Shown here piece after piece: positions 15,097 through 30,459 of a stretch of DNA of 64,000 bases. The notes under the pieces are model-generated. The model did no database searches. It was given only the letters and a program-made list of their open reading frames with translations, and was not told the origin of the DNA. The DNA is from Chloroflexota bacterium (GTDB lineage Bacteria > Chloroflexota > Limnocylindria > Limnocylindrales > CSP1-4). Every line of letters begins with the position of its first letter. Position 1 is the first letter of the stretch. The stretch is from the NCBI GenBank assembly GCA_016191395.1, contig JACPOS010000030.1:4235-68234 (forward strand), read 5' to 3'. The position numbers were made by a program, and so were the translations under genes.

Positions 15097-15810
15097 TCAG
15101 CCGCCCGCCTTCAGGCCGGCAAGGCGAGCGCTGACCTCTGCCTCGTCCTCGTCCGCCTCGAGCCCGGCGAACTGCTGGTCGAGCGACGATGCTGCGACCT
15201 CGTCCATGCCGCGGACCTGGGCCTCCTGGCGGCGGACTCGGTCCTCGAAGCGGTTGAGCTCGCTCGTCGGATCCATGATCGATGCGCTCTTCATCGCCTG
15301 CTGGACCTGGCCCTGAGCCTGCGCCATCTTCGCCCGGCTCACGAGCTCGTTGCGCTTCTGGACCAGCTCCTCGCGGCGGGCGCGCAGCTTGTTCAACCCG
15401 TCCTTGAGCTTGTCGGCGAGCTCGGTCTGGCCGGCCGCCTGCGTCTCGAGGGTCTTCGCCTGGCTCTCGTAGCCGATCTGGCGCCGAAGCGCGACCTTGG
15501 CGAGGTCGTCGAACTTGTCCGCCTCCGCTGCGTTGCCGGCGGCCCGCAGGTCGTCGGCGCGACGGGAAGCGGCCTTGGCCTTGCCACCCCACTCGTCGAC
15601 CGCGGCGCGCGCCTCGCGAGCGTCGTCCTCCACCATCCGAAGGTTGCCGATGGTCTGCGCGACGGCCTCCTCGGCCTCCGCGATGTTGTTCGTGAAGTCG
15701 CGGACGAGCTGGTCGAGCATCTTCTCGGGATCCTCGGCGCTGTCCAGCATCGCGTTGATGTTCGCGCGGACGAGCTGCCCGATCCTCCCCAGGATCGACG
15801 TCTGAGCCAT
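15097..15810 (-). CDS. pspA: PspA/IM30 family protein (phage shock protein A-like)
   Basis: 237 aa, all-helical. N-terminus SILGRIGQLVRANINAMLDSAEDPEKMLDQLVRDFTNNIAEAEEAVA is canonical PspA/Vipp1. Confidence 0.9.
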   Translation of the reverse strand: MAQTSILGRIGQLVRANINAMLDSAEDPEKMLDQLVRDFTNNIAEAEEAVAQTIGNLRMVEDDAREARAAVDEWGGKAKAASRRADDLRAAGNAAEADKFDDLAKVALRRQIGYESQAKTLETQAAGQTELADKLKDGLNKLRARREELVQKRNELVSRAKMAQAQGQVQQAMKSASIMDPTSELNRFEDRVRRQEAQVRGMDEVAASSLDQQFAGLEADEDEAEVSARLAGLKAGG

Positions 15811-15878
15811 GGAGTGCCTCCTTCGATGTGTCTGCGCACAGCCTACTCAGCCGGGCGCAACGATGCCGTGTGGAATAC

Positions 15879-17852
15879 CTACCAATGACCGCCCGCGGAA
15901 TGGCCGCCGCCACCTCCGCCACCGAAGCCCCCGAAGCTGCCGCCAGAGCTGTGGCCGCCGCCCCAGCCACCGCCACTGCCGCCGAAGAGCCCGCCGCCGC
16001 GCGGCGCGGATGACCCGGGGCTGCCCCACGAGGAGCCGCCCCAGCCGGCGCCGCGACCACCGCCGCTGAGAATTCCGCCGATGATGCCGCCCAGGATCGC
16101 GCCGGCGAAGTCGCCGCCGCCACTTGCCGCGGACCCGCGGCCAGTCCGGTCCCATTGCGTGAAGTCGAGGGTCGCGAGCGAGTAGGCCTCGCCGGCGAGC
16201 TTGTCCGCTCGCTGCGCGTCGGCCATCGCCTGCTTCGGGTCCGTGGCGCGCTCGGCCTCCGCGACGCCGAGCATGCGTTCCGCCTCGGCGAGGCGCGTGC
16301 GTGCCCGCCGGCCGACGCCGCCGCGGCGGGTCGCGACGAAGTCGCTCGCGCGGTCCATCTCGGCGCGAGCTGCGGCTATGGACGCCTCCAGGGCAGCGGC
16401 GAATCTCGCTGACTGCTCCGCATCAGCGCGGACCGCCGCGAGCAGCTCGCCGGCGAGTCGCTGGGCGGTCGCCGCGCTCCTGGCTGCGCCGATCGGCTCG
16501 GCTGGCCTCGCGGCTGCGGCAGCCCTCGCGGACCGCAGCGCGGCCCTGGCGGCCTCGACGTCTGCGGCGTGGGAGGGCATGCCGTCGGGTCCATCCCTCG
16601 GCGTGGCGGCGAGCGCGGCATCAAGGTCGGCCTCGGCGGCGTCCAGCTGGGCGCCGAGGCCGGCCTCGGTCTCGCGGATCGTCCGCGCGGCGACGTCGAT
16701 GGCGTCGAGCAGTCGCGCTGCGCCGGCGATGCCCTGCTGGGCGGTGACGATCTCGTGGGCGACGCCCGTGCCAGTCGCTGTCACCGCGGCAGTGCCGCGA
16801 TCGATGGCGGCACGCGCGCCCGCGATGCCCTTGGTCGCCTCGGCAACGTTGCCCTTCACGGCCGCCCACGCGGGCTCGGCGTAGGCGGCGCTCAGCTGAT
16901 CCAGCGTGGCCGTGGCCGCCGGGAGACGTGCCGCGAGGGCGTCCACCTGCGCGGGGAGCGACGCGAGGACCGCCGGCGCCTGCCGCTCGAGGTTGCGCAG
17001 CTCCTCGATCCGCGCCGTCTGGGCGTCGAGGGCGGCCGCGGCGCGCCCGAGCCGCTCGAGGATGTCGTTCAGCATCGCCTCCCGCGTCGGTGCGTCCTCC
17101 GGCTGGTCGTCGTCGAGGCGCTGGCGGATCTCGAACGCCCCACCGAGCTCGGTCTTCGCCTGCGCGACAGCTGCCCTGAACGGAGCCGCCTCGTCAGCCT
17201 CGAACTGTGCCTCGACGAAGCCGGCCTCCTGGTCGGATGAGCGAATCCGATCGTCGATCGCGATGAGCTGCGCGTTCGCTGCGCGAGCGAGCTTGCCGGT
17301 CCGGCGGTCGCGCTCCTCCGTCTCGCGCCACGACGAGACCCGGGAGGCGAGCCACACGAGGAGGATCGCGAGCCCGACGCCGAGGAGCACGATGCCGACG
17401 AGCCCGATGAGCACCCCGTCGACCGACTCCATGATGCCTCCGCTCGGCGGTGGCGTGACGCCGCCGCCTGGTGGTCCGGTCTCGCCGATACCCGGGTTGG
17501 GTTGCGTCGTGGAGGCCGCTGCGCCGAGGGCTCGGGCTGCCTCGATCACGGCGATGTCGAAGGTGCCCGTGCGAAGCGCGGGCTCCAGCGTGTCCGAGAT
17601 GACCCGGTTGAGCTCGTCGTTGGTGATGGCGAGCGAATCCGACACCCAGATTGCGTCGGTCCGGTCATCGACCGCGACGAGGAGGAGCACGTCGTCGCCG
17701 CCGAGCGAATTGATCCGCGCCGTCTCGTCGACGAATTCGGTGGAGGTCAACGCACCAGTCGAGCCGACGAACAGGACGAACACCTGGACACGCTGCTTGG
17801 CGAGCAGATCGTCGAGGGACGCCTTGATGGCGTCGGTGGAACTCGCGAGCAC
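15879..17852 (-). CDS. TPM-domain (YgcG-like) membrane protein with a Gly-rich C-terminal tail
   Basis: TPM domain start ITDQTGVLASSTDAIKASLDDL...VFVLFVGS. Central TM helix VLIGLVGIVLLGVGLAILLVWLA. Long coiled-coil region. C-terminal GGGWGGGHSSGGSFGGFGGGGGGGH. The annotated start is GTG at 17852. An in-frame signal-peptide-like extension lies upstream (see findings). Confidence 0.8.
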   Translation of the reverse strand: MLASSTDAIKASLDDLLAKQRVQVFVLFVGSTGALTSTEFVDETARINSLGGDDVLLLVAVDDRTDAIWVSDSLAITNDELNRVISDTLEPALRTGTFDIAVIEAARALGAAASTTQPNPGIGETGPPGGGVTPPPSGGIMESVDGVLIGLVGIVLLGVGLAILLVWLASRVSSWRETEERDRRTGKLARAANAQLIAIDDRIRSSDQEAGFVEAQFEADEAAPFRAAVAQAKTELGGAFEIRQRLDDDQPEDAPTREAMLNDILERLGRAAAALDAQTARIEELRNLERQAPAVLASLPAQVDALAARLPAATATLDQLSAAYAEPAWAAVKGNVAEATKGIAGARAAIDRGTAAVTATGTGVAHEIVTAQQGIAGAARLLDAIDVAARTIRETEAGLGAQLDAAEADLDAALAATPRDGPDGMPSHAADVEAARAALRSARAAAAARPAEPIGAARSAATAQRLAGELLAAVRADAEQSARFAAALEASIAAARAEMDRASDFVATRRGGVGRRARTRLAEAERMLGVAEAERATDPKQAMADAQRADKLAGEAYSLATLDFTQWDRTGRGSAASGGGDFAGAILGGIIGGILSGGGRGAGWGGSSWGSPGSSAPRGGGLFGGSGGGWGGGHSSGGSFGGFGGGGGGGHSAGGHW

Positions 17853-18098
17853 GCCCGTCTGATCCGTGATGGCGCCCTCGAGCCGCGGCGGGTCGGCCGC
17901 GAGCGCGGTCGTGGCGACCGAGAGGGCGAGGAAGACCGCGGCAACCGCGGATCGACGAGCGATCGAACGCCTCCGGAGAGCGGGCGCGCCGTCATGGCGG
18001 CCTCGGCCATCGTAGTGCCAGCGGCCGATTTGGGCAGGAGCCGCGCGACCCGTCCGACCGGTCCGGATGGACGGGGGGGGTCAGGAGCGCGCAGCTCG

Positions 18099-19442
18099 TC
18101 AGACGGAGCGAAGGCCTCGCGGCGGCCAGGTCCAGTCGACCGGCAGGTGGGCGGCCGCAAGCGCGCGCCGGCGGCCTGCCTCGCCCGCGCCGAGAATCAC
18201 GATTCGATCCACCTGGGTGGCGCGCCCAGCCTCCGCGCCCCACAGCCTGGTCATCTTGCGGTGGGCGTGGACGTCGTCGGCCGCGATCCCGGCGAGGCGG
18301 AACCCTGCCGGCGCCGCGGCCGCCTCCCACACCCGCTCTGCCAGGTCGTGGCCGTCGGTCACGTCCCGGCCGCGGTCCGTGGTGACGTCGCCGATCACGA
18401 GCACCACGATGCCGTCATCGGTCATCGCCGGCCGCAGGTCGGCCAGGACCGTCTTCATGAAGTCGAGGTACGGCGCGCGCCGGTGCGCGTCATCGAGCGA
18501 CGCGTCGATGGCCCGCGAGTCGAAGCCGAGGAACCACGTCCGAAGCCAGTTGTAGTACCCGTACTTGACGACGCGCAGGTACGGCGGCGACGTCACCACC
18601 AGCCGCGCGCGGTCCGGCAGGCCTCGCCCGCGGAGCGCCTGCGCGGCGCGCGTCCCGGCGTCGCGCGCGTCGCCGAGCAGGGCAAGGCCGGCGGCGCGGG
18701 GCAGGGGATCGCGGTAGAGCCGCGTCAGCTTGGCGTCCAGGCCATCGAACGCGTCGCGCTGCGGTGATTGGAATTCCGTCCGGGCGGCAAAGTCGCGGAC
18801 GTAGCGCGGGGCCATGCTGAACGTGTTGGGCATGAGCGTTGACAGGTAGGACGGGCTCTTCCCGTGGAGGATGCCCACGGTCGCGGCGGCGAGGAATCGA
18901 TCCACCGGGACGCGGAGGTCCAGCGCGTCCCGCAGGAACAGCAGCTGCGCGAAGGTCCGCGGGTGGAACGCGAGGATGACCTCGTCCGGAACGGGCTCGG
19001 GGCCGCCGGTCGCCGGTGACTCGCGGATCGCGTCGGCGAGGTCCCGCCACCGGTTGCCGGCCGATGCCCAGGCAAGCCGGAGTGCCGTCGCACGCGTCCG
19101 GGCCTGTGCGGCGGTCGGCGCGTCCACCTTGGCGGCGGTCAGCAGGTGCGCAAACGGGTTGAGGTCGTTGCCGACGCCGATCCGACCCTCCGCGGATGCC
19201 TGGAGGGGCGCGGTACCCCGGCCTGAGAAGGGATCCAGGACGACGTCACCGGGGCGGCTGTAGCGGGCGATGAACGCGTGCGTGAGTGCGGCCGGGAAGC
19301 TCGCGAGATACGAGCACATCGGGTGGAGCGAGTGGCCCCATAGCCGGGGCTGCGCCTTCCACTCCGGCTCCAGGGCAAGGCGCGGGATGCCGAGGCCAAG
19401 CTCGAGCTGAAGGGTGCTGCCGCTGGTTGGGCCCGCGGTCAT
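18099..19442 (-). CDS. DNA methyltransferase, beta-class N6-adenine/N4-cytosine (DNA_methylase_N-4/N-6 family), apparently orphan
   Basis: AdoMet motif I VLDPFSGRGTAP precedes the catalytic motif IV VVTSPPYL. This motif order is typical of beta-class amino-MTases. Start taken at internal Met MTAGPTSG (19442). No adjacent endonuclease-like gene. Confidence 0.8.
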   Translation of the reverse strand: MTAGPTSGSTLQLELGLGIPRLALEPEWKAQPRLWGHSLHPMCSYLASFPAALTHAFIARYSRPGDVVLDPFSGRGTAPLQASAEGRIGVGNDLNPFAHLLTAAKVDAPTAAQARTRATALRLAWASAGNRWRDLADAIRESPATGGPEPVPDEVILAFHPRTFAQLLFLRDALDLRVPVDRFLAAATVGILHGKSPSYLSTLMPNTFSMAPRYVRDFAARTEFQSPQRDAFDGLDAKLTRLYRDPLPRAAGLALLGDARDAGTRAAQALRGRGLPDRARLVVTSPPYLRVVKYGYYNWLRTWFLGFDSRAIDASLDDAHRRAPYLDFMKTVLADLRPAMTDDGIVVLVIGDVTTDRGRDVTDGHDLAERVWEAAAAPAGFRLAGIAADDVHAHRKMTRLWGAEAGRATQVDRIVILGAGEAGRRRALAAAHLPVDWTWPPRGLRSV

Positions 19443-19549
19443 CGAGCGATCTGCACTCCGATCGGGGCCCGTTCGGGCCACCGGGCGGCGGAGCATAGCA
19501 CCAGCGGTTCGTGGCTCCGGGCGCCCCGGGGAGGCCGGCCGGTACTGGG

Positions 19550-20935
19550 CTAGGGCTGGATGAAGATGAAGTTCTGGAGGTCCAGGCCGCCGATCTGGCG
19601 GTCATAGATGCTGTCCAGGAAGATCGTGCCGCCGCCGGCGTCCGGTGGCGGGGTGGGCTGTGGTGCGAGGATCGCCCCGTCGTAGAGCTGCCGGAACAGC
19701 GCCTCCGCGTCTGCCTTGGCGATCACGAAGGTGAAGCGTGCCCCGCTCGCGTCCTGGACCAGCGCGTACGACGGCGCGCCGACGAGCAGCGGCGCAAGAT
19801 CGATGGAGACCTGGGTCAGGTCGCCCTTCGTTCCGTCAGCCGCGCTGTACGGGTAGTGCCAGGTCTTCCAGGTGGCCGTGATGGGCAGGGTGCCGCTCGG
19901 CGTGCTCGTGAACGAGATCAGGCGAGCGCCCTGGGCCTTCCCCTGCAGGCCGGCCAGCATCGTGATGATCCGATCCTTCACCCCGTCGCGACACGGATCC
20001 TTGGGCGGGCAGACGAAGCTCATCATCGGTGTCTCGAACCCGTTCTTGTCGCCCGCGGCCACGAGCAGATCCGGTGGCCCGAGCTTCGGCGTGGGGGTGG
20101 GTCCGGCGGTGGGCGGCGGACCGGTGGGCGCGACCGTTGGTGCCAGGGTGACGACCGGGGTCGCCGTGGCGACCGCCGCGGCCGTTGGGGTCGGCTTCGC
20201 ATCGAGGCCAAGCATGCGCGGCAGGACCAGGACCGCAGCGATGGCCGCGATGAGCAGGCCACCGGCCGGCTTGATCCAGCCGGGGATGATCGCGCGCTGC
20301 TCGAGGGTAGCGGGGACCTGGAAGGAGCCCGCCGTCGGCTCGTCGATCTGGACGGCGAATGGAACGCGCTTCGGCGAGCCCAGCCAGAACGTCGTCTTCG
20401 GCTTGACCCGGGTGCGAATCGTCGCCGAGCCGCCCGGGCGAAGACCGGCGCGGTCCGGGATGACCTCGAAGTTGAGCAGGCGGTCCGGATCGCTCGCCTT
20501 GACCGAGACCTCCGCGACCGAGTTGCCGACGTTCTGGATCGTGACGTCGTGCGAGCCCGAGCGGCTGCCGCGCGACGTCTGCGGCACGATCTCCGAGGCC
20601 AGCTGGACGAACGGCGCGACGACGATGTGCCCTTCCTCGACGGTGGACGCGCTCGCGTCCGATGCGGCACGGACGGCGATGCCGAAGGGGTAGGTGTCGG
20701 CCGCCGGATCCGGCGCTCGATGCGGAGCGAAGGTGACCCGAGCCTCACCCTCCTTGTCCGGGAAGAGGCGCAACGACGGGGGGTCGACGGTCGCCCACGG
20801 CGCGGTGGGCCCGACCACGGTGATGTCGAACTGGTCGACGATCGTGCCGCGGTTCCTGACCCGGACGACGAGGGAGGTGGCGGCGCCGGCTTCGACCTGG
20901 AGGTTGGCCGGGTCAATGGTCGCGAGGACGCTCAT
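19550..20935 (-). CDS. membrane protein with two N-terminal Ig/CARDB-like beta-sandwich domains, one TM helix, a Pro-rich linker and a C-terminal globular domain
   Basis: 461 aa. Repeated beta-sandwich segments (LVVRVRNRGTIVDQFDITVVG...; HDVTIQNVGNSVAEVSVKAS...). TM helix GGLLIAAIAAVLVLP. Linker PTPTAAAVATATPVVTLAPTVAPTGPPPTAGPTPTP. Function unknown. Confidence 0.6.
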   Translation of the reverse strand: MSVLATIDPANLQVEAGAATSLVVRVRNRGTIVDQFDITVVGPTAPWATVDPPSLRLFPDKEGEARVTFAPHRAPDPAADTYPFGIAVRAASDASASTVEEGHIVVAPFVQLASEIVPQTSRGSRSGSHDVTIQNVGNSVAEVSVKASDPDRLLNFEVIPDRAGLRPGGSATIRTRVKPKTTFWLGSPKRVPFAVQIDEPTAGSFQVPATLEQRAIIPGWIKPAGGLLIAAIAAVLVLPRMLGLDAKPTPTAAAVATATPVVTLAPTVAPTGPPPTAGPTPTPKLGPPDLLVAAGDKNGFETPMMSFVCPPKDPCRDGVKDRIITMLAGLQGKAQGARLISFTSTPSGTLPITATWKTWHYPYSAADGTKGDLTQVSIDLAPLLVGAPSYALVQDASGARFTFVIAKADAEALFRQLYDGAILAPQPTPPPDAGGGTIFLDSIYDRQIGGLDLQNFIFIQP

Positions 20936-21017
20936 GGCCCGAGTCTACACCGGGGTTTCGGCGGACTACACTGCCCCGGTCGGCGGCTCGTCATGAGACA
21001 AAGGGGATCCCCAGGTC

Positions 21018-22460
21018 GTGATCAAATGCGGCGTTTGCGGCTCGGAGAACGAGGCAGCGGCCCTGTTCTGCGGCACGTGCGGGAGCCCGCTTGCGCCCGC
21101 CGAGGCGACGGCCATCGCCGACGACGCCACCAGGACGGTCGAAGCCACGACTCCCGAGCCGGACGAGGCCGTGGTGCCCGGCAAGGGTGGCGCCCGGCGC
21201 GACCTCGGGACCGGTGGCGAGAGCACCACCGTGCCCGATGCCACGACGGTCACGCCGACGCCGGAGCCAATCGCCGACGTGGAGACCGCGCCCGGCGGCC
21301 CGACCATCACGTGCGGCGTGTGCGGCACGATCAACGACGCGTCGCGGACCTACTGCCGCAAGTGCGCGAGCGAGCTCAGGCCCGCGCCGCCCCCGCCCCC
21401 GCCGCCGCCGCCTCCGCCACCTGCCAGGCGGATCTCGCCCCTCGCCCTGGGCCTCGGCGCCGGTGCGATCGTCGTGGCGATCGCCCTCGTTGCCGTCCTC
21501 GTGCTTGGTGGGGGCAAGCCCGGCGCGACGCTCGCTCCAACGGCCCAGGCGACCACGCCGGCGCCCACGGGTACACAGGCCGCCGTGGTGCCAACGACCG
21601 GGCCGACCGTCGCCCCGACGGCGACCGCCAGGACCTTCACCGAAGGCGCCCTGTCCGGCCAGATCGCGTTCTCTCGCTGCGTGGCCGGCACCAAGTGCGC
21701 CATCTTCCTGCGCCCGGCCGACTCCTCCGCGAAGCCGCGCCGAATCATCGGCGTGAACAACGCCGACGCTCTTGACCCGGCGATCTCTCCGGATGGCAAG
21801 ACGATCGTGTACGTCACCGAGCCCGGACTGGACATCGTGACCATCGCGAGCCGCCAGGTTGTGCAGCACTCCACGGGCGCCGGCGACACGACTCCGGCCT
21901 GGTCGCCGGACGGCACGCAGATCACCTTCGCCGGCCACCGAGATCGAGACAAGAACGGCACCGACCTGGAGATTCGGATCGACGGCCTTGCCGCCTCCAG
22001 CTCGTCGCGGGCACTGACGGTCAACGACGTTGCCGATCACGACCCGGTCTTCACCCCTGACGGCCTGTCCATCATCTTCGTCCAGGGCTCGGGGGACGAG
22101 CGCGAGCTGAAGATGCTCACGATCGCCACCGGCGAGATCAAGGCCCTCACCACGGATGCGTTCGCGGACGAGGACCCGGCCGTCTCGCCCGACGGAACGT
22201 TGCTCGCCTTCGCCAGCAAGCGCGGTGACGGCAGCACGTTCGACCTGTTCCTGATGGACCTCAAGACGCTCCAGATCACCCCGCTGCCGGCGAGGGACGG
22301 GAACGACAACGATCCGGCGTGGTCGCCCGGCGGTCGCTACATCGTCTTCTCCGGCGGCCCCGACGGCGCCAAGGACCTGTTCATCCTGGACCTGTCAACG
22401 ATGAAGACGTCGACGTTCACCAAGGACGCAGGGAGCGACATCCAACCGTCCTGGCGCTGA
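21018..22460 (+). CDS. double zinc-ribbon / TM / TolB-like (PD40) beta-propeller protein
   Basis: N-terminus MIKCGVCGSENEAAALFCGTCG and second ribbon ITCGVCGTINDASRTYCRKCA. 12-Pro run. TM helix LALGLGAGAIVVAIALVAVLVLGG. At least 5 PD40-type repeats (DPAISPDGKTIVYV, TPAWSPDGTQITFA, DPVFTPDGLSIIFV, DPAVSPDGTLLAFAS, DPAWSPGGRYIVFSG). Confidence 0.75.
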   Translation: MIKCGVCGSENEAAALFCGTCGSPLAPAEATAIADDATRTVEATTPEPDEAVVPGKGGARRDLGTGGESTTVPDATTVTPTPEPIADVETAPGGPTITCGVCGTINDASRTYCRKCASELRPAPPPPPPPPPPPPARRISPLALGLGAGAIVVAIALVAVLVLGGGKPGATLAPTAQATTPAPTGTQAAVVPTTGPTVAPTATARTFTEGALSGQIAFSRCVAGTKCAIFLRPADSSAKPRRIIGVNNADALDPAISPDGKTIVYVTEPGLDIVTIASRQVVQHSTGAGDTTPAWSPDGTQITFAGHRDRDKNGTDLEIRIDGLAASSSSRALTVNDVADHDPVFTPDGLSIIFVQGSGDERELKMLTIATGEIKALTTDAFADEDPAVSPDGTLLAFASKRGDGSTFDLFLMDLKTLQITPLPARDGNDNDPAWSPGGRYIVFSGGPDGAKDLFILDLSTMKTSTFTKDAGSDIQPSWR

Positions 22461-22566: not shown

Positions 22567-25500
22567 TTGCCAGAGGAGCGGCACGATGCTCGGGCCCGAC
22601 GCCCGTCGCCTGCGGGTGCCCAGCCGCCCTCGGTGGTCCCGGCGAAGGTTCGCGTCCCCACGGCCGAGGCACTCCCGCGGGAGCGCCTGGAAGGACAGCT
22701 CGCCGCAGCGGTGGAGCGGCATCGGCTGACCCTCGTCATCGCTCCCGCCGGCGCCGGCAAGACGACGCTCCTGGCCCGCTTCGCCGCGTCGACGCGCCTG
22801 CCCGTGGCCTGGTACCGGGCGGAGACCTGGGACGACGATCCGTCGCGCATGCTCCGGCATCTGGAGGCGGCGCTCGGCGCGGCGCTGCCGGGACTGCCAT
22901 CGGGCTGGTCCGACGTCGAGGACGCGGCCCGGTCGTTGGAGCGGTGGACCGGCGGGCCCGCCGCGCTCGTCATCGACGACCTTCACGCCCTCGAGGGCAC
23001 GGCGGCCGAGGCGGTCCTGAGCCGGCTGGTGGACTACGCGCCGCCATGGCTCCGGATCCTCGCAGCGTCGCGTGTCAGGCCCGACTTCAACCTGCCGCGC
23101 CTCCGCGTGTCGGGTGACCTCCTGCAGATCGAGGGCGACGACCTCCGCTTCCGGTCATGGGAGGTGGAGCGGCTGTTCCGGGACTTCTACCGCGATCCCG
23201 TGCCCCCGAGCGAGCTGGCCGTCCTCGCCCGACGCACGGAGGGCTGGGCCGCGGGCCTGCAGCTGTTCCACCTCGCCACGCGGGGCAAGTCTGCCGACGA
23301 GCGACGCCGGATCCTGGGCGGGGTGGGCTCCAGCACGCGACTGCTGCGCGACTACCTGGCCCGCAACGTTCTCTCCGAGCTGCCCGACGACCTCCGCCGA
23401 TTCCTCGTGGACACGTGCGTCCTCGTTCGCCTCACGGGTGACCTCTGCGACGAGCTGCTCGACCGGCGGGGGAGCGCGCTCCTGCTCGAGGAGCTTGCCC
23501 GCCGGCAGCTGTTCACGGTGGTCGTCGACGAGAGCGAGGGCTCGTATCGGTACCACGAGGTGCTCCGCTCGCACCTCGACCGGATGCTGGTAGAGGAGGT
23601 CGGCGAGGCGGAGGCGCGCCGGCGCCACCAGCGCGCCGCGAGCCTCCTGGAGCGCAGCGGCGCGCTGTCCGAGGCGCTCGTCGGGTACTGCCGGGCGGAG
23701 GACTGGCCGGCGGTGTCCAGCCTTGTCGGCAATCGGGGCGAGCAGGTCGCCGGCGGAGCCGGCCTGCGCCTGGAGCTGCTGCCCCCGGCGCTCGTCCGCG
23801 ACAGCCCATGGCTCGCCCTCGCCTCGGCTCGCCGAGCCCGGGCCGAAGGCCGCTGGGGGGCCGCCCTGGAGTCGTACGCCCGCGCCGAGGCCGCGTTTGG
23901 GGCCTCGACGGCCGGCTCCACCTGCCGCGGTGAGCGCCTCGCCCTGTCCGCCTGGCTTGACCCGGTTGCGATCCCGCCCGCGGACTGGACCGGGGTCCTT
24001 CGCGCAGGCCTCGTCCGCGAGCCGCTGGCCGCGGCGCGCGATTCGCGCCTGGACCCGGAGCACCGCGACCTGGTGCGAGGGCTTCTCCTCCTCGCCGCCG
24101 GCGAGGTTGCCGAGGCGCGTCGCGCGCTGACGGAGGCCAGCCAGCTCGAGGAGCTGGACCCGTCGCTTGGCGCGGCCGCGGCGGTTGGTGCGGCGGTTGC
24201 CGCCCTCCTCGCGGGGGAGCCCGGGGCGGTTCGCCAGCTCGCCGACGCGATCGACATCGCCGAGCGCACGGGCCTGCCATGGCTCGCTCGAATGGGCCGC
24301 CTGGCGGCGAGCATCGGCAACGCGGAGCTGGACCGGAGCTCGTCGGACGAGCCCGTTCACCCCGATGCGATCAGTGCGGAGACGGACCCGTGGGGCGCGC
24401 TGCTCGCCGCCCTGGTCGAGGCGTGGGTCGCCGAGTCGACGGCCACCGAGGTCGTGGGCGAGATTCGAATCGCGGCCGCGGAGCGTGCCGCAGCCCTCGC
24501 GCGCCGGCTCGGCGCGGGCGTCCTCGAGGCGCTGGCCCGCGGCCTGGCCGCGTACGGGATGGCCGAGACGAATGCGCCGGAGGTACGCGAGACCGCGCTC
24601 GCGGTCGAGAGCCTGGCGCGTGCAACCGGCACGTCCGCGCCGCGCCTCCTCGCCTACGCCGCGCTCGCCGACGCGAGCCCGGCTCGCAGGGAGGAGTACG
24701 AGCTGCTCGCGGACAACGTCCGCCGCGAGACCGGCCTTCGCCTGCCAGTCCGGCATGACGCCGCGCCAACTCCCGGCGCGGTCGAGCCGCAAAGCGGCTC
24801 CGTGTTGCAGGACAGCCGGGTCGTGCTGCCGCCCCTGGCGCGCGGGCACGGCATCGACATCCGAGCATTCGGTGGCTTCGCGGTGGAGGTCGAAGGCCGC
24901 GCCGTCCCACTGGACGGGGTCAAGCCGCGCGCCCGCGCCGTCCTTCGATTCCTCGCCGTACGCCCGGGTGTGGCGATCCACCGGGAGGTGATCCAGGAAG
25001 CCCTCTGGCCGGACGTGGACTCGCCCACGGGCGCCCGAAGCCTCCACGTCGCCGTATCGGCGCTGCGTGGGCTCTTCGCGGAGGCCCTCGCCGCGGACGC
25101 GACCCGGCTCATTGCCCGCGAGGGTGACGCGTACCGGCTCGCGGTGGATCCGACCTCCGTCGACGTGGGGCGGTTCGAGCGCGAGATGGCCCGAGCGCGG
25201 GCCTCGCGGAACGGCGCCGGCAAGGTCGGCACCGGAACGGCGGAGTTCGCGGCCGCGCTCGCCCTGTACCGGGGCGACCTCCTGCCCCAGGACGGACCGG
25301 CCGAGTGGGCCGTGGAGCGTCGGGAGCACTTCCGCCGCGAGGCCGTCGAGGCCGCGACGATCGTGGCCGAGGATGCCCTCGCATCGGGCGATCTCGAGGA
25401 GGCGATCCGCGTCTGCCGCCGCGGGCTTGAGCTGGACCGGTTCCACGATCCACTGTGGCGCGTGCTCATCGCGGCTCGCGACCAGGCTGGGGACGCCGGT

Positions 25501-25584
25501 GCAGCGAGTCGCGATCGCCGGGAGTACGCCTCCATCCTGGAGGGCTTGGGCCTCAGCCCGGAGCTGGCCGCGAACTCGGCCTGA
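22567..25584 (+). CDS. STAND-type NTPase transcriptional regulator with C-terminal SARP (OmpR-type winged helix plus BTAD) DNA-binding module
   Basis: Walker A LVIAPAGAGKTTLLARF preceded by a MalT-like N-terminal pattern. Long helical/TPR-like middle. C-terminal OmpR-type wHTH (IDIRAFGGFAVEVEGRAVPLDGVKPRARAVLRFLAVRPGVAIHREVIQEALWPD) followed by BTAD (ALALYRGDLLPQD...RVLIAA). TTG start at 22567; the true start may be ~20 codons downstream. Confidence 0.8.
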   Translation: MPEERHDARARRPSPAGAQPPSVVPAKVRVPTAEALPRERLEGQLAAAVERHRLTLVIAPAGAGKTTLLARFAASTRLPVAWYRAETWDDDPSRMLRHLEAALGAALPGLPSGWSDVEDAARSLERWTGGPAALVIDDLHALEGTAAEAVLSRLVDYAPPWLRILAASRVRPDFNLPRLRVSGDLLQIEGDDLRFRSWEVERLFRDFYRDPVPPSELAVLARRTEGWAAGLQLFHLATRGKSADERRRILGGVGSSTRLLRDYLARNVLSELPDDLRRFLVDTCVLVRLTGDLCDELLDRRGSALLLEELARRQLFTVVVDESEGSYRYHEVLRSHLDRMLVEEVGEAEARRRHQRAASLLERSGALSEALVGYCRAEDWPAVSSLVGNRGEQVAGGAGLRLELLPPALVRDSPWLALASARRARAEGRWGAALESYARAEAAFGASTAGSTCRGERLALSAWLDPVAIPPADWTGVLRAGLVREPLAAARDSRLDPEHRDLVRGLLLLAAGEVAEARRALTEASQLEELDPSLGAAAAVGAAVAALLAGEPGAVRQLADAIDIAERTGLPWLARMGRLAASIGNAELDRSSSDEPVHPDAISAETDPWGALLAALVEAWVAESTATEVVGEIRIAAAERAAALARRLGAGVLEALARGLAAYGMAETNAPEVRETALAVESLARATGTSAPRLLAYAALADASPARREEYELLADNVRRETGLRLPVRHDAAPTPGAVEPQSGSVLQDSRVVLPPLARGHGIDIRAFGGFAVEVEGRAVPLDGVKPRARAVLRFLAVRPGVAIHREVIQEALWPDVDSPTGARSLHVAVSALRGLFAEALAADATRLIAREGDAYRLAVDPTSVDVGRFEREMARARASRNGAGKVGTGTAEFAAALALYRGDLLPQDGPAEWAVERREHFRREAVEAATIVAEDALASGDLEEAIRVCRRGLELDRFHDPLWRVLIAARDQAGDAGAASRDRREYASILEGLGLSPELAANSA

Positions 25585-25602: not shown

Positions 25603-27651
25603 TCAGGGCCGGCGCCACCATGGATTCTTCGGGTCCGGCTCCGACGGCGGCTCGATCAGCGCCGTGCCGCACTTCATGCAGAACCGCCGGGCGGGATTGT
25701 TCGGCGTCGAGCAGTTGGGGCAGATCCGGGGCGGGATGACCTCGCCCTCCGGCATCTTCTGCCCGCACTTCATGCAGAAGCGCCGCTCGGCGTGGTTGGG
25801 CGTCCCGCAGTTGGCGCAGATCCGCATCAGCTCTGGCTTGGGCTCGGGGACCGGCTCGGGCTGCGGTGTGCCGGGAATCACGGTGCCGTCCGTCCTGTCG
25901 TCGACGGTGGCGGGCTCCGCCGTCGCATCGGGCTGCGCGGGGGTTGCAGCGACGCCCCGACCAGCCGCTCGCAGCGCTGCCCGATAGGCGTCGCGCGCGG
26001 CCTTCGCGGCCGCCGCGCGCTCCGCTTCATGGGCGGCCCGCCGCGCCTCGATGCGGGCCTGGCGCATTGACTCCTCGTCCGCGGCGGCCTTCTCCGCTGC
26101 GAGCCGATCCGCTTCCGCCTGCCTGGCCGCCGCCTGCTCGTCCGCCGCCGCCTTCTCGGCGGCCAGGCGATCCGCCTCCGCCTTCTCGGCAGCACGTTGT
26201 TCGGTTGCTGCCGCCTCAGCCGCAGCCTCCTCGCGTTCCGCCTTCTCCGCGGCGGCCTGCACTGCCGCCGCCTCCTCCTCGGCCGCCTTCTCCGCCGCGA
26301 TTCGGTCCGCCTCGGCGTGTTCTGCGGCGGCCTTCTCTGCGGCCACTCGTTCTGCTTCAGCGGCCTCGATGGCGGCAAGCTCGTTGGCGATCCGATCGGC
26401 TTCCGCCTTCTCGGCCGCGGCCTTCTCTACCGCTGCCTTCTCTGCCGCTGCTCGGTCGGCCTCGGCCTTTTCGGCTGCCGCCTTCTCCGCGGCGACTCGT
26501 TCCGCCTCGGCTCGTGCATCGGCGGCTTCCTTGGCTGCCTGTTCCGCCGCGGCCTTCTCCGCCGCTGCCTGCTTTGCCGCGGCCTGGTCCGCGGCGGCCT
26601 TCTCCGCCGCGGCTTGTGCTGCGGCTGCCGCGGCCGCGCGCTCGGCTGCCTCCTCTTCCTCGGCCGCCCGCTTCGCGGCCGCCGCTGCCTCCGCTGCGGC
26701 CCGGTCCGCGGCGGCCTTCTCGGCCGCTGCCTTTTCTTCAGCCTCGGCCATGTCCGCGGCGGCTTTCTCCGCGGCGGCTTTCTCGGCAGCGACCCGGTCT
26801 GCTTCGGCACGCTCGCGAGCGGTCTGTTCCGCTGCCTCGCGCTCCGCCCTGGCCTTCTCGGCAGCAACCCGATCCGCAACGGCCTTCTCCGCTGCCTTCC
26901 GTTCGGCCTTCGCGGCCTCTGCGTCGCCCTTCGCCGCCGCGGCCTTCTCGGCCGCGATATGCGCGGCTTGCTCATCGGCAAGGCGCGCCGCCTCGGCTTG
27001 TTCGGCGGCGACCCGAGCGGCCCTCTCGGCGGCCGCCTGCTCCTTCGCCACGCGCTCTGCTTCGGCCTTGTCAGCGGCCGCCTTCTCCGCTGCGATGCGC
27101 TCCGCCTCGGCCTTCGCCGCCGCAGCGGCCTTGTCCGCCGCGACCTTCTCTGCCGCCATGCGGTCGGCCTCGGCCTTTGCGGCGGCCGCCGCTTCCGCGG
27201 CGAGGCGCTCAGCCTCTGCCTTCTCAGCCTCTGCCTTCGCCGCTGCCTCGCGATCTGCGGCGGCCTTCTCCGCTGCGATGCGGTCGGCCTCGGCCTGATC
27301 GGCGGCAGCCTGTTCGGCGGTAGCCTTCGCCGCGGCGAGGCGCTCAGCCTCTGCCTTCTCAGCCTCTGCCTTCGCCGCGGCCGCCTTCTCCGCCGCGATC
27401 CGATCTGCCTCGGCCTTCTCGGCCGCCCTCCGGTCCGCCTCCGCCTGTTCCGAGGCGGCCTTCTCCGCGGCCGCCTTGTCTGCGGCCGCCTTGGCGACCG
27501 CTGCGGCGGCATCGGCCTTCGCTGCCTCGGCCTTCGCCTTCTCGGCGGCCTCGTCGTACGGCTCGCCGGTGTCGGGCAGGAAGTTGCCGCATCCGCCGCA
27601 GAAGACGACAGACGCTTCATTGATCGTGCCGCAGACCTTGCAGCGGATCAC
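25603..27651 (-). CDS. zinc-ribbon-capped Ala/Glu/Lys/Arg-rich helical repeat protein (N-terminal zinc ribbon, ~530-aa low-complexity helix, two C-terminal zinc ribbons)
   Basis: GTG start at 27651 with a GGGAGGGA RBS 5 nt upstream. N-terminus MIRCKVCGTINEASVVFCGGCG. Approximately residues 35–565 are degenerate AEKAAAEKAEADRIAAEKAAA-type repeats. C-terminal ribbons ICANCGTPNHAERRFCMKCG and ICPNCSTPNNPARRFCMKCG. The underlying DNA is tandemly repetitive (25.96–27.56 kb). Lies 76 nt downstream of the gpI-like gene. Confidence 0.75.
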   Translation of the reverse strand: MIRCKVCGTINEASVVFCGGCGNFLPDTGEPYDEAAEKAKAEAAKADAAAAVAKAAADKAAAEKAASEQAEADRRAAEKAEADRIAAEKAAAAKAEAEKAEAERLAAAKATAEQAAADQAEADRIAAEKAAADREAAAKAEAEKAEAERLAAEAAAAAKAEADRMAAEKVAADKAAAAAKAEAERIAAEKAAADKAEAERVAKEQAAAERAARVAAEQAEAARLADEQAAHIAAEKAAAAKGDAEAAKAERKAAEKAVADRVAAEKARAEREAAEQTARERAEADRVAAEKAAAEKAAADMAEAEEKAAAEKAAADRAAAEAAAAAKRAAEEEEAAERAAAAAAAQAAAEKAAADQAAAKQAAAEKAAAEQAAKEAADARAEAERVAAEKAAAEKAEADRAAAEKAAVEKAAAEKAEADRIANELAAIEAAEAERVAAEKAAAEHAEADRIAAEKAAEEEAAAVQAAAEKAEREEAAAEAAATEQRAAEKAEADRLAAEKAAADEQAAARQAEADRLAAEKAAADEESMRQARIEARRAAHEAERAAAAKAARDAYRAALRAAGRGVAATPAQPDATAEPATVDDRTDGTVIPGTPQPEPVPEPKPELMRICANCGTPNHAERRFCMKCGQKMPEGEVIPPRICPNCSTPNNPARRFCMKCGTALIEPPSEPDPKNPWWRRP

Positions 27652-27727
27652 TCAGGTCCCTCCCGGCACCATGCTACCGGGCCGGACGCGGACCGCGAGG
27701 CAGCGCGATCACCCGTTCCCGCGGCGA

Positions 27728-28477
27728 TCAGGTCGCCGGCGCCTCAGGCTCCGCCGGCGCCTCAGGCTCCGCCGGTTTCTCTGCCGCCGGGGTCTTCTTC
27801 GCCGCCTCGTCCGGCGCCGGTGTTGCGGCCTTGGCCTTGCGACTGGCTCGCTGCTCCGTGCCCACGATCTCCACGCGATGGACGACGTGCGCGGGCTTCG
27901 AGGCATGGACCATCGCCTCGAGCTTCGTGCGATCGATCGAATCCGGGTCGTCCACGGTCACGCGGACCACGACGACCGGTTCCGGGCTGCCGGGCAGCTT
28001 GCCCTCCGGCTTCGGGGACCAGCTGCTCGCCCCGTTCTCGACGATCTCGACGATTCCGCCGGTGTGGATCTGGACGTGGTCACGCAGGCCCGCCGCGGTC
28101 CCGCGCCGGCGGTACAGCTCCGCCGCCTGGCCCACGAATGCACGTCGCCGATCCTCCGGCCAGCCGTCATCGACCGACGCCGCGACCCACTCGCCGAGCC
28201 AGGCCAGGAAGTCCTCCGGCGTCGTGTCGGCGTCGAAGTACGCGGGAAGGTTGTCCAGGGTGGCGAGGACCGGTGCGAGCACCGTGTCGAGCGCCGAGAT
28301 GAAGCGCGTGCCGAACGGCTCCCGCGCCGTCCGCCGCCGCTCGTCGATCCAGGCGTCGCGATAGACGCCCGGCAGGCTCTCGGCGAGCGGGTGGGGGTTG
28401 ATGAGCTCGAACTCGGACCCGGTGGCGAGGGCGGTCTCGCCGTCCGTCCGTGCGAGTGCCACCACGGCGGCTCGCAT
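27728..28477 (-). CDS. phage tail protein I-like baseplate protein (P2 gpI / eCIS Cis12-like)
   Basis: ATG overlaps the baseplate-J stop (ATGA). The segment FLAWLGEWVAASVDDGWPEDRRRAFVGQAAELYRRRGTAAGLRDHV aligns to the P2 gpI motif LPWLAWAFSVDRWDEKWPE..KRAVIRDAYFIHCHKGTIGAIRRVV. Low-complexity Pro/Glu/Ala C-terminal tail. Confidence 0.8.
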   Translation of the reverse strand: MRAAVVALARTDGETALATGSEFELINPHPLAESLPGVYRDAWIDERRRTAREPFGTRFISALDTVLAPVLATLDNLPAYFDADTTPEDFLAWLGEWVAASVDDGWPEDRRRAFVGQAAELYRRRGTAAGLRDHVQIHTGGIVEIVENGASSWSPKPEGKLPGSPEPVVVVRVTVDDPDSIDRTKLEAMVHASKPAHVVHRVEIVGTEQRASRKAKAATPAPDEAAKKTPAAEKPAEPEAPAEPEAPAT

Positions 28478-30459
28478 CAGGCGACCGACGCCGCGGCGCC
28501 CGGGACGGTGACCACGTGCCCAACGCTGAAGACGAGCACGTTCGGCTTCAGCTCGAGTCGCGGCGTCGCCTCGCGGCCCTCGCACGTCTCGGCGTTCGTG
28601 CCGAACAGGTTCACCGAGTCCACCACCTCCGACCCGGGCACACGCTGCAGCACGGAGTAGATCTCGCCGATGGTGACCGGCCGGCCGAACGGCCAGCCCT
28701 TCCCGTCCGGGCCCCCGGTGATCGGATGCAGGTATTCGTACAGGGCACGCTCGGCGTCGGCCTTCAGTCGGTTCGGGTTCGCGCCGGCAGCCGGCTTGAC
28801 GGTCGCCTCGACGGTGACGCCCCGATACCCCGGCGGCTCCACGCTGATGCGCGTCCCGATGACCCGGCATTCCTCGAGCCGCTGGGTGATGGCCTCGAGG
28901 AGGGTTGGATCGGGGACCAGCTGGTCGAAGCGGATGCGGCCGTCGATGCTCGGCAGCGAGGGCACCACGAGCAGGCGAACGGCGCCTGCGAGCGCACCGT
29001 CGCCCGCCGCGATCGCGCGGACGCGGCCCACGTTGGGGGCGGCTTCGCGCGCGAGGTGCTCGAAGTCCTCCGTCGTGACCGCCCGGCCGCGCGTGCGCAG
29101 CCGGATCGGCCCGCGGACCTTCGCGTTCTCGATGTCCTCGCCGTCGACGCCGCCCCGCGCGTCGCGCCGGTTCTCCACCCGGGAGACGAACGGGTTCGCC
29201 GACTTCACGACCTTGATGGAGCCCGTCGCCGCGTTGCCGCGCTGGCCGCCGCCGGTGTGGTACTCCAGCATCCGGATGTAGCGGTCCTTCTCGGGCGTCG
29301 CGCCGTACTGGCGAAGCGAGCCGTCCGGCTGCCGGATCGCGGGGCCAAACCGGACCTCGCCGGTCGCGCCGTCGATCACGAAGTGGCGGTCGGTGGGGCC
29401 GCTGGCCGCGAAGTCCTCCACCTGGTCCCATGTCTGCCAGGTCGGGCTGCCGTCGGCGTCCGAGCCCGTGGACACGGCGAGCGTGGCCGCCTCGTCCGTG
29501 GACAGGACGGGCTTGCGCCGGAGCTCGAAGCGCTGGCCCGGCACACCCTCGGAGACGCCGAGGTCCTCGTCGCGAACCACCGAGGCGTTGACCGCCGCGA
29601 CCGTGCCGCCGACGGTGATGGAGCTCGCCGCGTTGACCGTGGGCGAGGCCTCGTACCCGGACATGCCCGGGATGGGCTCCACGACCCGCGCCCGGACCCA
29701 GGCGGCGTGCCTGGTGCCGATGGTGTGCGCGGCATGGCCGCGGGGGACGTGGATCACGACGTCGCCGTCCCGGTTGAGACCGCCGGTGGAATCAGAGTCC
29801 TGCTCGCACGGGATCCAGTCCTCGCCGTTCCACGCCTCCCAGAGAAGTGGCGGGTGGTCCGGGTTGACGCCGACGCCCTCGATGTCGCACTTGAAGCGGA
29901 GCTGGATCGCGTTCGACGGCACCGCCTGCGACAGGCCGATGAGCAGCGCATCGCCGAGGGCGGGCTTCTCCTGGAAGCAGTACGCATCCTTGCCCAGCTC
30001 CACGAGCGGCAGGAGGTCGCGGTAGGCCGATTTGCCCTTCGCCATCGAGCCGAGCTCGATCAGCGTCGCCGGGATGATCGGGAGCTCCTCGGTGGTCGCG
30101 AAGATGATGGCCTCGTCCGTCTCGGTGCGGACCGTCGCTACCTGCGTCGCCGGCGGGATGCGGACGACGTCCGGCTGCGGCCCGGCGAGCCAGAACGTGA
30201 CGTCCGTCCGTGCCGCGGTCGGCGGGAACAGGGTCACGCCGATCAGCTCCAGGAACTTGATGTAGTTCCGGTCCGGGACGCGGTTCAGCCGGTAGATCAG
30301 CTGGTCCGTCATCCACGCGAACGTCTCGATGAGCGTCACGCCCGGGTCCGACACGTTGTGGTCGGTCCACTCCGGGCAGCGCTGCTGGACGAGCCGCTTG
30401 GCCTCGTCGACGAGGTCCTGGAAGCGACGATCGTCAAGGTTGGGGACGGGTAGCGCCAT
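28477..30459 (-). CDS. baseplate J-like protein (gp6/gpJ family; eCIS Cis11/Afp11-like)
   Basis: 660 aa. N-terminus MALPVPNLDDRRFQDLVDEAKRLVQQRCPEWTDHNVSDPGVTLIETFAWMTDQLIYRLNRVPDRNYIKFLELIGV is the canonical baseplate-J/gp47 family start. Confidence 0.9.
   Translation of the reverse strand: MALPVPNLDDRRFQDLVDEAKRLVQQRCPEWTDHNVSDPGVTLIETFAWMTDQLIYRLNRVPDRNYIKFLELIGVTLFPPTAARTDVTFWLAGPQPDVVRIPPATQVATVRTETDEAIIFATTEELPIIPATLIELGSMAKGKSAYRDLLPLVELGKDAYCFQEKPALGDALLIGLSQAVPSNAIQLRFKCDIEGVGVNPDHPPLLWEAWNGEDWIPCEQDSDSTGGLNRDGDVVIHVPRGHAAHTIGTRHAAWVRARVVEPIPGMSGYEASPTVNAASSITVGGTVAAVNASVVRDEDLGVSEGVPGQRFELRRKPVLSTDEAATLAVSTGSDADGSPTWQTWDQVEDFAASGPTDRHFVIDGATGEVRFGPAIRQPDGSLRQYGATPEKDRYIRMLEYHTGGGQRGNAATGSIKVVKSANPFVSRVENRRDARGGVDGEDIENAKVRGPIRLRTRGRAVTTEDFEHLAREAAPNVGRVRAIAAGDGALAGAVRLLVVPSLPSIDGRIRFDQLVPDPTLLEAITQRLEECRVIGTRISVEPPGYRGVTVEATVKPAAGANPNRLKADAERALYEYLHPITGGPDGKGWPFGRPVTIGEIYSVLQRVPGSEVVDSVNLFGTNAETCEGREATPRLELKPNVLVFSVGHVVTVPGAAASVA

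Follow-up and report, generated by a model that had tools for sequence, protein, structure and literature searches.

A putative anchorless CisA derivative with a long helix-prone rod in a Chloroflexota contractile injection system locus

In a 64,000-nucleotide stretch of Chloroflexota DNA (assembly GCA_016191395.1, contig JACPOS010000030.1; the whole stretch is called the window below), the gene that directly follows cis12 in an operon for a contractile injection system (CIS) encodes a 682-aa protein which, judged from its sequence, is very probably a derivative of the Sco4242/CisA family without the transmembrane (TM) segment and the C-terminal domain (CTD) of that family. Its novelty lies in the missing TM segment and outer domain combined with a long rod. 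The accessory protein family as such is already known, and the protein represents neither a new kind of tail fibre nor a categorically new machine. The explanation that we favor as a whole, with a probability of roughly 55%, is that this rod-extended, anchorless CisA derivative acts as a cytoplasmic tether or trigger adaptor. CisA is the only factor so far known to couple a cytoplasmic CIS to its firing site. For CIS specialists, an anchorless form with a rod of about 80 nm and a candidate partner would offer a useful and moderately surprising handle on the triggering of cytoplasmic CIS.

Gene, locus and family assignment

The open reading frame (ORF) was confirmed at 25603-27651 on the (-) strand, with a GTG start and its stop codon at 25603-25605. 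An earlier note on this DNA had placed the gene in the slot after a gpI-like baseplate gene, 76 nt away, on the same strand and behind a strong ribosome-binding site, and the coordinates, a Tail_P2_I match in the upstream gene and the sequence GGGAGGGA agree with this. The parts of the gene, as delimited with Pfam, alignments, a hidden Markov model (HMM) and AlphaFold2 (AF2) with its per-residue confidence score pLDDT, and the two genes preceding it are:

27657-27664, (-) strand: Shine-Dalgarno sequence GGGAGGGA, 5 nt upstream of the GTG start
27553-27651, (-) strand: first zinc ribbon ZnR1 (C4-C7...C18-C21) with its conserved FLPDxxEPYD tail, residues 1-33; Pfam DUF7577/Zn_Ribbon_1; equivalent to domain 1 of Sco4242
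25966-27552, (-) strand: Ala/Glu/Lys/Arg helix-prone rod, residues 34-562; AF2, composition, charge-pair statistics
25828-25965, (-) strand: acidic Pro/Thr-rich disordered linker, residues 563-608; pLDDT <50 at 564-608
25732-25827, (-) strand: ZnR2a, an extra, clade-specific copy of the membrane-proximal ribbon, residues 609-640; HMM, Pfam DZR, AF2
25606-25731, (-) strand: ZnR2b, a 15-residue spacer and PWWRR, residues 641-682; HMM, alignments; equivalent to domain 2 of Sco4242
25609-25623, (-) strand: PWWRR motif, residues 677-681, one residue ahead of the stop; alignments, both Trp invariant in all relatives
27728-28477, (-) strand: cis12 (P2 gpI-like baseplate wedge), 249 aa; Pfam Tail_P2_I 7.7e-16
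28477-30459, (-) strand: cis11 (gpJ-like baseplate wedge); Pfam Baseplate_J

The same-strand genes upstream of the target encode, in addition to gpI and gpJ/Cis11, gp25, VgrG, a LysM/CIS_tube protein, two gp19-type tube proteins and the sheath, while genes for an AAA+ ATPase (Cis15) and an eCIS_core protein (Cis16) diverge from this operon. The co-orientation of the structural genes together with the divergent Cis15 and Cis16 genes confirms the CIS context and bears out the earlier assignment of the locus to the extracellular CIS (eCIS) type. Cis11 of the window is 52-54% identical to Streptomyces type IId Cis11. In favor of the reading frame of the target speak the ribbons that Pfam scores at either end and GC contents of 0.81 at third and 0.58 at second codon positions (GC3 and GC2) in a window with 71.7% GC, and orthologues preserve the frame despite many indels. 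A crude scan for promoters and terminators between cis12 and the target gave no signal above chance in this non-model organism with 72% GC and hence no indication that the gene is transcribed separately, and exact-sequence look-ups of the window proteins returned no matching record. As an observation on cis12 itself, its 3' end (27734-27775, (-) strand) consists of a perfect 18-nt tandem repeat in 2.3 copies that encodes a PAEPEA-type tail of Cis12.

The N-terminal ribbon and the two tandem C-terminal ribbons that had been read from the sequence were recovered by Pfam at residues 2-23, 609-633 and 644-665 (Zn_Ribbon_1, 1.5e-13; DZR, 2.2e-12; DUF7577, 1.2e-11, the last being a whole-protein E-value over three stretches of which 2-23 is the best). 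For a more specific comparison we used an HMM of the second ribbon plus the PWWR signature (43 model positions) that was built from full-length relatives only, with the window's clade left out. This ZnR2 HMM matched residues 642-681 with 44.7 bits (i-E 2.9e-13; model positions 5-42 of 43, PWWR included) and ZnR2a at residues 610-638 with 27.7 bits (i-E 5.6e-8); the N-terminal ribbon scored 12.9 bits. Applied to the six-frame translation of the window, it found the target as best match, a ribbon protein with a PD40 propeller (see below) at 45.9 bits for the whole protein, and everything else at E >0.2. In alignments, ZnR1 of the target corresponds to the ZnR1 of every relative, column for column. 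Together with the ZnR2 HMM scores this alignment makes homology to the cytoplasmic part of CisA well supported. Compared with the full-length forms, ZnR2 is duplicated in the clade of the target. AF2, run on a shallow alignment, models both C-terminal ribbons with a pLDDT of ~81-86 and WWR as a short helical turn, and Foldseek of this C-terminal model against the PDB returned only small zinc knuckles (RanBP2/NZF and L40e types), none with E <=0.001.

Comparable loci were collected by a scan with the Cis12 protein that considered one genome per species and yielded 80 loci. Cis12 identity amounts to 71-89% in the closest Chloroflexota metagenome-assembled genomes, mostly Ca. Limnocylindrales, to 41-50% in other Chloroflexota, and to ~38-47% in Streptomyces and other actinomycetes. 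The gene right after cis12 matches the ZnR2 HMM in 77 of the 80 loci, and in two of the three exceptions less than 250 nt of sequence are left. A survey of the genes after cis12, as the earlier note had proposed, thus finds zinc-ribbon genes to be the rule and not unique to the window.

Members of this family share a layout that begins with ZnR1 and a low-complexity linker of 78-680 aa, followed by a ribbon of the type CxxCxxPNxPxR[KR]FCxxC, the PWWR motif ~10 residues further on, a basic stretch, a TM segment, and a CTD of ~150-190 aa that ends in ...EIE[VFY]F. The CTD scores as an NADase-type discoidin domain (F5/8 type C-like), with 30.7 bits for PF25302 in L014, and with 50.5 and 51.6 bits for NF047619 NADase_discoid (cut-off 38) in one member each from Streptomyces (L023) and Chloroflexota (L008); NF047619 did not match the target. 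The distance between PWWR and the TM segment is 9-17 aa in actinomycetes and 24-35 aa in other Chloroflexota, and the tails measure 191-193 aa in Streptomyces and Actinophytocola and 208-215 aa in full-length Chloroflexota proteins. In Streptomyces the linker is rich in Pro and has a length of 148-152 aa; that of Actinophytocola (L029) has 78 aa. The full-length family comprises 672 representatives at E <=1e-10, counted with a profile that includes the columns for the TM segment and the CTD from P0004 and P0012 and under-samples anchorless forms.

The Streptomyces coelicolor member of the family has been described under two names. Sco4242 of Streptomyces coelicolor, encoded after the wedge genes and named a 'putative fiber', was found by mass spectrometry in purified particles; HHpred located zinc ribbons at residues 5-31 and 219-246 together with a TM helix and a CTD of the discoidin type, and Cys-rich domain 2 was proposed to attach the protein to the baseplate (Vladimirov et al. 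2023, PMC10020575). Renamed CisA, the protein was later shown to be membrane-located and bitopic, with residues 1-285 in the cytoplasm and 310-468 outside, and to be needed for in situ contraction and CIS-dependent cell death in S. coelicolor (Casu et al. 2025, PMC12237407). CisA is missing from the cryo-EM particle, in whose structure no fibres were seen, and its cytoplasmic part is predicted to touch Cis11 (PMC12237407). Since the layout of the actinomycete genes matches both the HHpred layout of Sco4242 and the topology of CisA, the gene family after cis12 is the Sco4242/CisA family. The view that nothing of this kind had been described for eCIS is therefore incorrect, because the slot in type IId loci is occupied by a published protein (PMC10020575, PMC12237407). 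The papers searched and read make no mention of Chloroflexota CisA relatives or of TM-less forms. Type IId particles are described as intracellular in Streptomyces and Chloroflexota, those of Chloroflexota as unanchored, in a 2026 study in which close homologues were lacking in Roseiflexus (PMC12998442).

With CisA of S. coelicolor the target has in common the slot after cis12, the N-terminal ribbon, a variable low-complexity linker and a second ribbon with the PWWR signature. CisA differs in its TM segment and NADase-type discoidin domain, its single ZnR2, a Pro-rich disordered linker (78-152 aa in the actinomycete proteins) and an actinomycetotal host. Full-length CisA-like proteins of Chloroflexota (within L007-L016; P0004; P0012 in L081) are closer in that they share the slot, ZnR1, ZnR2-PWWR and a convergent AfsR/SARP-like regulator (a comparison that leaves out P0004, which has no contig on record). 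They differ from the target in having kept the TM segment and the discoidin tail, in possessing one ZnR2, and in a helix-prone part of 223-329 aa followed by a Pro-rich segment; PD40 or Sco4256-like neighbours are absent within 10 kb of their loci. As position and cytoplasmic modules are those of CisA while TM segment and discoidin CTD are absent, we class the target as an anchorless CisA derivative and not as a membrane adaptor.

Missing anchor and predicted helical rod

Other relatives run on past PWWR into the TM segment and a tail of 191-215 aa, whereas the target stops one residue after PWWRR, its C-terminus being ...NPWWRRP. None of its 19-residue windows has a Kyte-Doolittle mean above 1.6, no export signal was detected, and Pfam and NCBIfam returned only the zinc ribbons and low-complexity HC2-like matches, i.e. 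no fibre, collagen, knob or carbohydrate-binding domain. The first reading of the sequence, which had likewise noted the lack of a TM segment and of recognisable fibre, collagen or adenovirus-knob domains, proved accurate in this respect, too.

The truncation is real and conserved, no accident. An end of the form WW[RKH][RKG] plus 0-2 aa is present in eight complete genes (window, L001, L004, L005, L006, L011, L086, L090), two of them on contigs of 1.17 and 0.53 Mb, and L003, which appears frameshifted, shares the end point. A search with the C-terminal 145 aa added seven metagenome fragments on contigs of <=3.2 kb that end 0-2 aa after WW[RK][RK]; in one of them a stray Ala occupies the final column of the alignment. 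The lost part was detected neither by tblastn nor by a TM+CTD HMM, whose positive controls scored 304 and 216 bits, in the 64-kb window and in the anchorless loci examined (~20 kb each; best E 0.15). A TM/CTD exon would not fit in either, because the stop codon of the convergent regulator gene lies only 18 nt from that of the target. All anchorless forms belong to one clade of Ca. Limnocylindrales in which Cis11 is >=80% identical, with <=60% identity to all others. Their confinement to a single tight clade marks the anchorless form as one derived event.

The existence of a natural form with the cytoplasmic ribbon modules alone argues that the conserved core of the family lies in these modules rather than in the TM segment or outer domain, and it marks out ZnR1 and ZnR2-PWWR as binding sites for experiments. 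It also extends the CisA relatives to the Chloroflexota.

Between the ribbons, the helix-prone part covers 529 residues (34-562) and would measure ~79 nm when fully helical (calculated). It contains no Pro and a single Gly, at position 242, which is not kept in orthologues; 49% of residues 34-560 are Ala and ~40% are charged (whole protein: 39.9% Ala, 15.8% Glu, 7.9% Lys). In single-sequence mode AF2 predicts helices at 34-239 and 246-562 and disorder at 564-608, with a pLDDT of mostly 66-83 per block in the rod and dips to ~40-60 around 150-180, 240-250 and 330-410. The final 40 rod residues (ARIEARR...AYRAALRA) form a conserved island. The earlier description of ~530 aa of repeats reaching up to the C-terminal ribbons is thus correct for the 529 helix-prone residues, but a disordered acidic, Pro-containing segment of 46 aa intervenes.

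Hydrophobic residues make up only 5.7% of the rod; power at a period of 3.5 residues is absent, and charge has a period of five residues. Opposite charges are enriched at i/i+3,4 (z = +3.75), like charges are depleted (39 pairs observed versus 86.6 expected), and the net charge is -33 to -34, depending on boundaries. An Ala-based, salt-bridged single helix of the (EAAAK)n type is a better match for this pattern than a canonical coiled coil, which is disfavoured by the lack of a heptad signal among the hydrophobic residues. Similarity to single alpha-helix (SAH) domains of the ER/K type and to A(EAAAK)nA linkers lies in helix propensity, absence of Pro, few hydrophobics, missing heptads and i/i+3,4 salt bridges, features in keeping with a stiff spacer; its Ala content and its share of charged residues place the rod nearer to Ala-based E/K helices than to natural ER/K domains.

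Within the clade, identity is 76-100% for ZnR1, 61-85% for the C-terminal module and 59-66% for the rod, whose composition and frame are kept, and drops to 28-45% in the linker (563-608) with a VPG motif as the conserved exception. Pro/Gly-free stretches add up to 475-605 aa in the anchorless clade and to 223-329 aa in the full-length relatives from Chloroflexota. The former length corresponds to a spacer of 71-91 nm across the clade, which would be an easily testable parameter of firing geometry. The span from ZnR1 to the next ribbon is 519-680 aa among relatives with Cis11 >=80% identical. Many full-length Chloroflexota CisA proteins (L008-L016, P0004, P0012) already carry helical Ala/Glu/Arg/Gln/Lys linkers, for instance AEADRLAAEQAAA in P0004, and the rod is therefore older than the truncation.

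The DNA underneath is a degenerate repeat with periods of 15, 30, 45, 60 and 135 nt and 62-80% matches. The ~1.6-kb repeat of the earlier note is thus real, and the doubt that it cast on the copy number is justified only on a small scale. A gross mis-assembly or large-scale collapse is unlikely because exact repeats within the gene reach 49 nt at most and no 55-mer occurs twice; one 135-nt unit may have been gained or lost. Shadow ORFs of up to 701 aa, Pro/Arg-rich or Ser/Ala-rich, lie over the repeat on both strands (e.g. 25866-27323, (+) strand). These arise as a side effect of the GC-rich repeat and warrant no gene annotation.

Searching a set of 5.8 billion proteins with the full-length protein was swamped by low-complexity Ala/Glu/Lys sequences and retrieved only P0004 and P0012 as true relatives. 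FtsY N-domains, Geobacter TPR/DUF11 proteins and a 'histone H1-like repetitive region' were compositional matches that we do not read as homology. A DNA-binding, histone H1-like rod was likewise rejected, as Pfam HC2 (22.9 bits; cut-off 40) and NF038053 (23.2 bits; cut-off 80) remain below threshold and the rod is net acidic. As a side observation, rod-like Ala/Glu/Lys stretches of the HC2-like kind serve as linkers in many bacterial proteins that are unrelated to one another (e.g. FtsY N-termini, Geobacter TPR/DUF11 proteins, kinases, OmpA-like proteins; among matches P0001-P0120), which suggests a widely reused spacer module.

Proposed role and competing explanations

The anchorless derivative probably serves the same pathway as CisA. 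Taking into account the missing export signal, the three Cys4 ribbons and the intracellular nature of type IId particles, we propose that the protein stays in the cytoplasm; Cys4 zinc ribbons are typical of cytoplasmic proteins. One ribbon end would dock on the baseplate wedge, with Cis11 as candidate contact by analogy to the prediction for CisA, and the co-purification of Sco4242 with particles is in line with such docking. Serving as a semi-rigid spacer with a length of at most ~80 nm, the rod would bring a membrane-proximal ligand within reach of the other end. As the target has no anchor and no sensor domain of its own, the membrane link that CisA provides in cis would have to be made in trans. 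The outcome would be that of CisA, i.e. free-floating particles would be brought to the membrane and contraction licensed. Among the roles of fibre, tether or spacer named in the earlier note, tether and spacer are thus favored, and an extracellular receptor-binding fibre is unlikely given that type IId particles are intracellular (PMC12998442).

The best candidate for a membrane partner is encoded beyond the convergent regulator gene. With the regulator included, three genes need to be considered:

22567-25584, (+) strand: AAA_22/WHD/Trans_reg_C/BTAD (AfsR/SARP-like STAND) regulator, 1005 aa; Pfam; converges on the target
21015-22460, (+) strand: protein with ZnR, 70-aa linker, ZnR, a run of 12 Pro, TM segment, Pro/Thr linker and PD40/TolB-like propeller; domain scans, synteny
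19550-20935, (-) strand: Ig(PapD/Cep192-like)-TM-CTD protein, 461 aa; Pfam Cep192_D3, HYDIN/VesB Ig; TM at residues 222-249

The regulator is kept in all Chloroflexota CIS loci examined, at 54-86% identity, and is probably the CIS regulator. In loci of the full-length type it is followed by housekeeping genes (e.g. ppdK, rpoD). In its bitopic layout the PD40 protein resembles CisA, but its outer domain is a different one. Divergent from its gene is that of the 461-aa Ig-TM protein, which has a CTD of ~210 aa without family match and resembles, in the layout that has been published, the 'putative toxin' Sco4256 of type IId CIS (Ig domain 2-216, TM helix 219-250; PMC10020575). The presence of this Sco4256-layout gene indicates that the CIS locus of the anchorless clade extends past the regulator. 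PD40 and Sco4256-like genes occur in all nine anchorless loci with flanking DNA and in none of six loci of the full-length type.

Protein searches delimit the PD40 orthogroup sharply at ~90 clusters with 38-84% identity, which suggests that the anchorless clade is commoner than intact copies of the repetitive gene would imply. All five PD40 contexts inspected contain the Ig-TM gene and a downstream gene; in two contexts the latter encodes a BTAD regulator, and the other three show either the N-terminus of a regulator-like protein or a truncated gene without assigned identity. In both contexts long enough to reach the target slot, the anchorless CisA gene is present. A metagenome scan with the PD40 protein gave four loci, one of them close.

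A tether that reaches this clade-restricted ZnR-ZnR-TM-PD40 protein in trans is the mechanism we put forward tentatively, with the odds somewhat against it, since the co-occurrence amounts to one evolutionary event and the interaction is one that we purely infer. Alternatively, or in addition, the basic end made up of the two ZnR2 copies and WWRR might bind the membrane directly. It is tempting to go one step further and to speculate that a two-piece trigger has replaced one-piece CisA, in which a soluble ~80-nm rod at the baseplate and a bitopic ZnR-ZnR-TM-PD40 sensor would dock via their zinc-ribbon modules, and firing would be gated by reversible contact at a set distance from the membrane instead of by a permanent anchor; we consider this elaborate version doubtful. 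The analysis nominates a concrete candidate for a membrane partner and a very long, probably stiff spacer. The supposed task, i.e. linking a contractile particle to the membrane before firing, is that of the trans-envelope complex of the type VI secretion system and of the TM-containing baseplate extension of cyanobacterial tCIS, whose solutions for membrane attachment were summarized by Casu et al. (PMC12237407). Both of these anchor in cis via integral membrane components, unlike the target, which is devoid of any membrane segment.

Several points weigh against a rod-shaped tether with the PD40 protein as partner. Confidence in the helix is only moderate (mean pLDDT 63.6 and predicted template modelling score 0.20 for the full AF2 model), and an antiparallel Ala-packed hairpin, an Ala-based coiled coil or a dimer may be equally compatible with the rod. 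Typical SAH domains are far shorter than ~530 aa, and classical ER/K domains are more highly charged than the rod. The PD40 ribbons score 24-25 bits with the CisA ZnR2 model, lack PWWR, and are no better than generic ribbons. Their co-occurrence with the anchorless gene, as one event in one clade, is weak evidence of functional coupling. Finally, a second full-length cisA may exist elsewhere in the genomes of the clade, beyond the 64 kb of the window and the ~20 kb viewed per locus.

Among the competing explanations, the one that survives best, though we consider it unlikely, is a self-sufficient peripheral membrane tether. Here the two ZnR2 copies and the terminal WWRR would bind the inner face of the membrane by themselves, with the PD40 protein as an unrelated neighbour or independent sensor. 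It would account for the invariant Trp pair of PWWR, which is still at the extreme C-terminus despite the loss of the TM segment, for the net charges of +2 (ZnR2a) and +4 (ZnR2b+PWWRR) on an otherwise acidic protein, and for the juxtamembrane position of the motif in full-length relatives, 9-35 residues ahead of the TM segment; duplication of ZnR2 would raise avidity. However, five residues and two small ribbons make a weak lipid anchor, and the invariant WWR, which AF2 shows as a short helical turn only, may instead belong to the fold of domain 2 or to a protein interface.

Slightly less probable still is a safety catch or decoy, in which the soluble CisA fragment would block the CisA sites of the baseplate and inhibit firing. 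The target indeed consists of exactly those parts with which CisA presumably contacts the particle, without the membrane part, and a lethal cytoplasmic CIS needs a checkpoint (Casu et al., PMC12237407). By contrast, the gene itself sits in the cisA slot with no full-length cisA seen nearby to compete with, and a cap has no need of a rod with more than 500 residues, about twice the helix-prone length of the anchored relatives.

A crosslinker between particles (e.g. baseplate to baseplate) or between particles and another structure that would bundle or position cytoplasmic CIS is improbable. Three ribbons on a long, stiff-looking spacer would make the protein bivalent, and the structural matches of the ribbons are protein-binding knuckles of the RanBP2/NZF type. 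These Foldseek matches are not significant, though, ZnR1 and ZnR2 are distinct sequence types throughout the family, which suggests two different ligands, and Chloroflexota type IId particles are described as unanchored and intracellular (PMC12998442).

We give very little weight to a non-canonical extracellular tail fibre or receptor-binding rod, for which the slot after gpI and the first name of Sco4242, 'putative fiber' (PMC10020575), speak. The target has three Cys4 ribbons and neither a signal peptide nor a TM segment, nor a fibre, collagen, knob or carbohydrate-binding domain, and the discoidin CTD, the sole candidate surface binder of the family, is precisely the part that was lost. Moreover, type IId particles are intracellular, and no fibres are visible in the cryo-EM structure (PMC12237407, PMC12998442). 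With Afp13/Pvc13 and P2 gpH fibres, the target shares only the gene position after gpJ/gpI and an elongated shape; those fibres are trimeric beta-structures, whereas the target is predicted to be alpha-helical and most likely cytoplasmic, with no shaft, knob or chaperone-dependent domains detected.

Just as remote is a decaying or mis-assembled cisA without function of its own, or a tape-measure-like or cargo helix: the DNA is repetitive, short-read metagenomes break inside the gene (as the seven C-terminal fragments show) and L003 is apparently frameshifted, but the same end recurs in eight complete genes whose assemblies are independent of each other and include contigs of 0.5 and 1.2 Mb, with ends 61-100% and rods 59-66% identical, frame and composition kept and no repeated k-mer >=55, and the helix reading is contradicted by a gene position at the far end of the operon past cis12, on the wrong side of the baseplate genes for a tape measure, and by a ribbon-to-ribbon span that ranges between 519 and 680 aa in closely related proteins.

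Further genes of the window

A gene for an N6/N4 DNA methylase (18099-19601, (-) strand) follows that of the Sco4256-like protein, a position that is kept in L001, L004-L006, L086, L087, L089 and L090, i.e. in most but not all loci of the anchorless type. Farther along, the gene for a PspA/IM30 membrane-stress protein (15097-15846, (-) strand) adjoins that for a TPM-domain membrane protein with a long helical region and a Gly-rich C-terminus (15879-18080, (-) strand). With tblastn no homologue of either gene was found in related loci within a reach of ~10 kb from cis12, and a link of this pair to a system that damages its own membrane is speculative.

Among the tube-type genes, near the position of a tape measure, an ORF for a 616-aa Ala/Pro/Ser-rich protein (33946-35796, (-) strand) contains a [PAS][IV]QR motif repeated ~9 times and ends in a charged C-terminus that looks conserved. 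The ORF has an unusually high GC2 of 0.74, and neither Pfam nor NCBIfam gave a match. At the opposite border of the CIS locus, cis16 is followed by a gene for a 236-aa protein without family match (42308-43018, (+) strand), on which the gene for a second regulator, of the LuxR/GerE type, converges (43035-43757, (-) strand).

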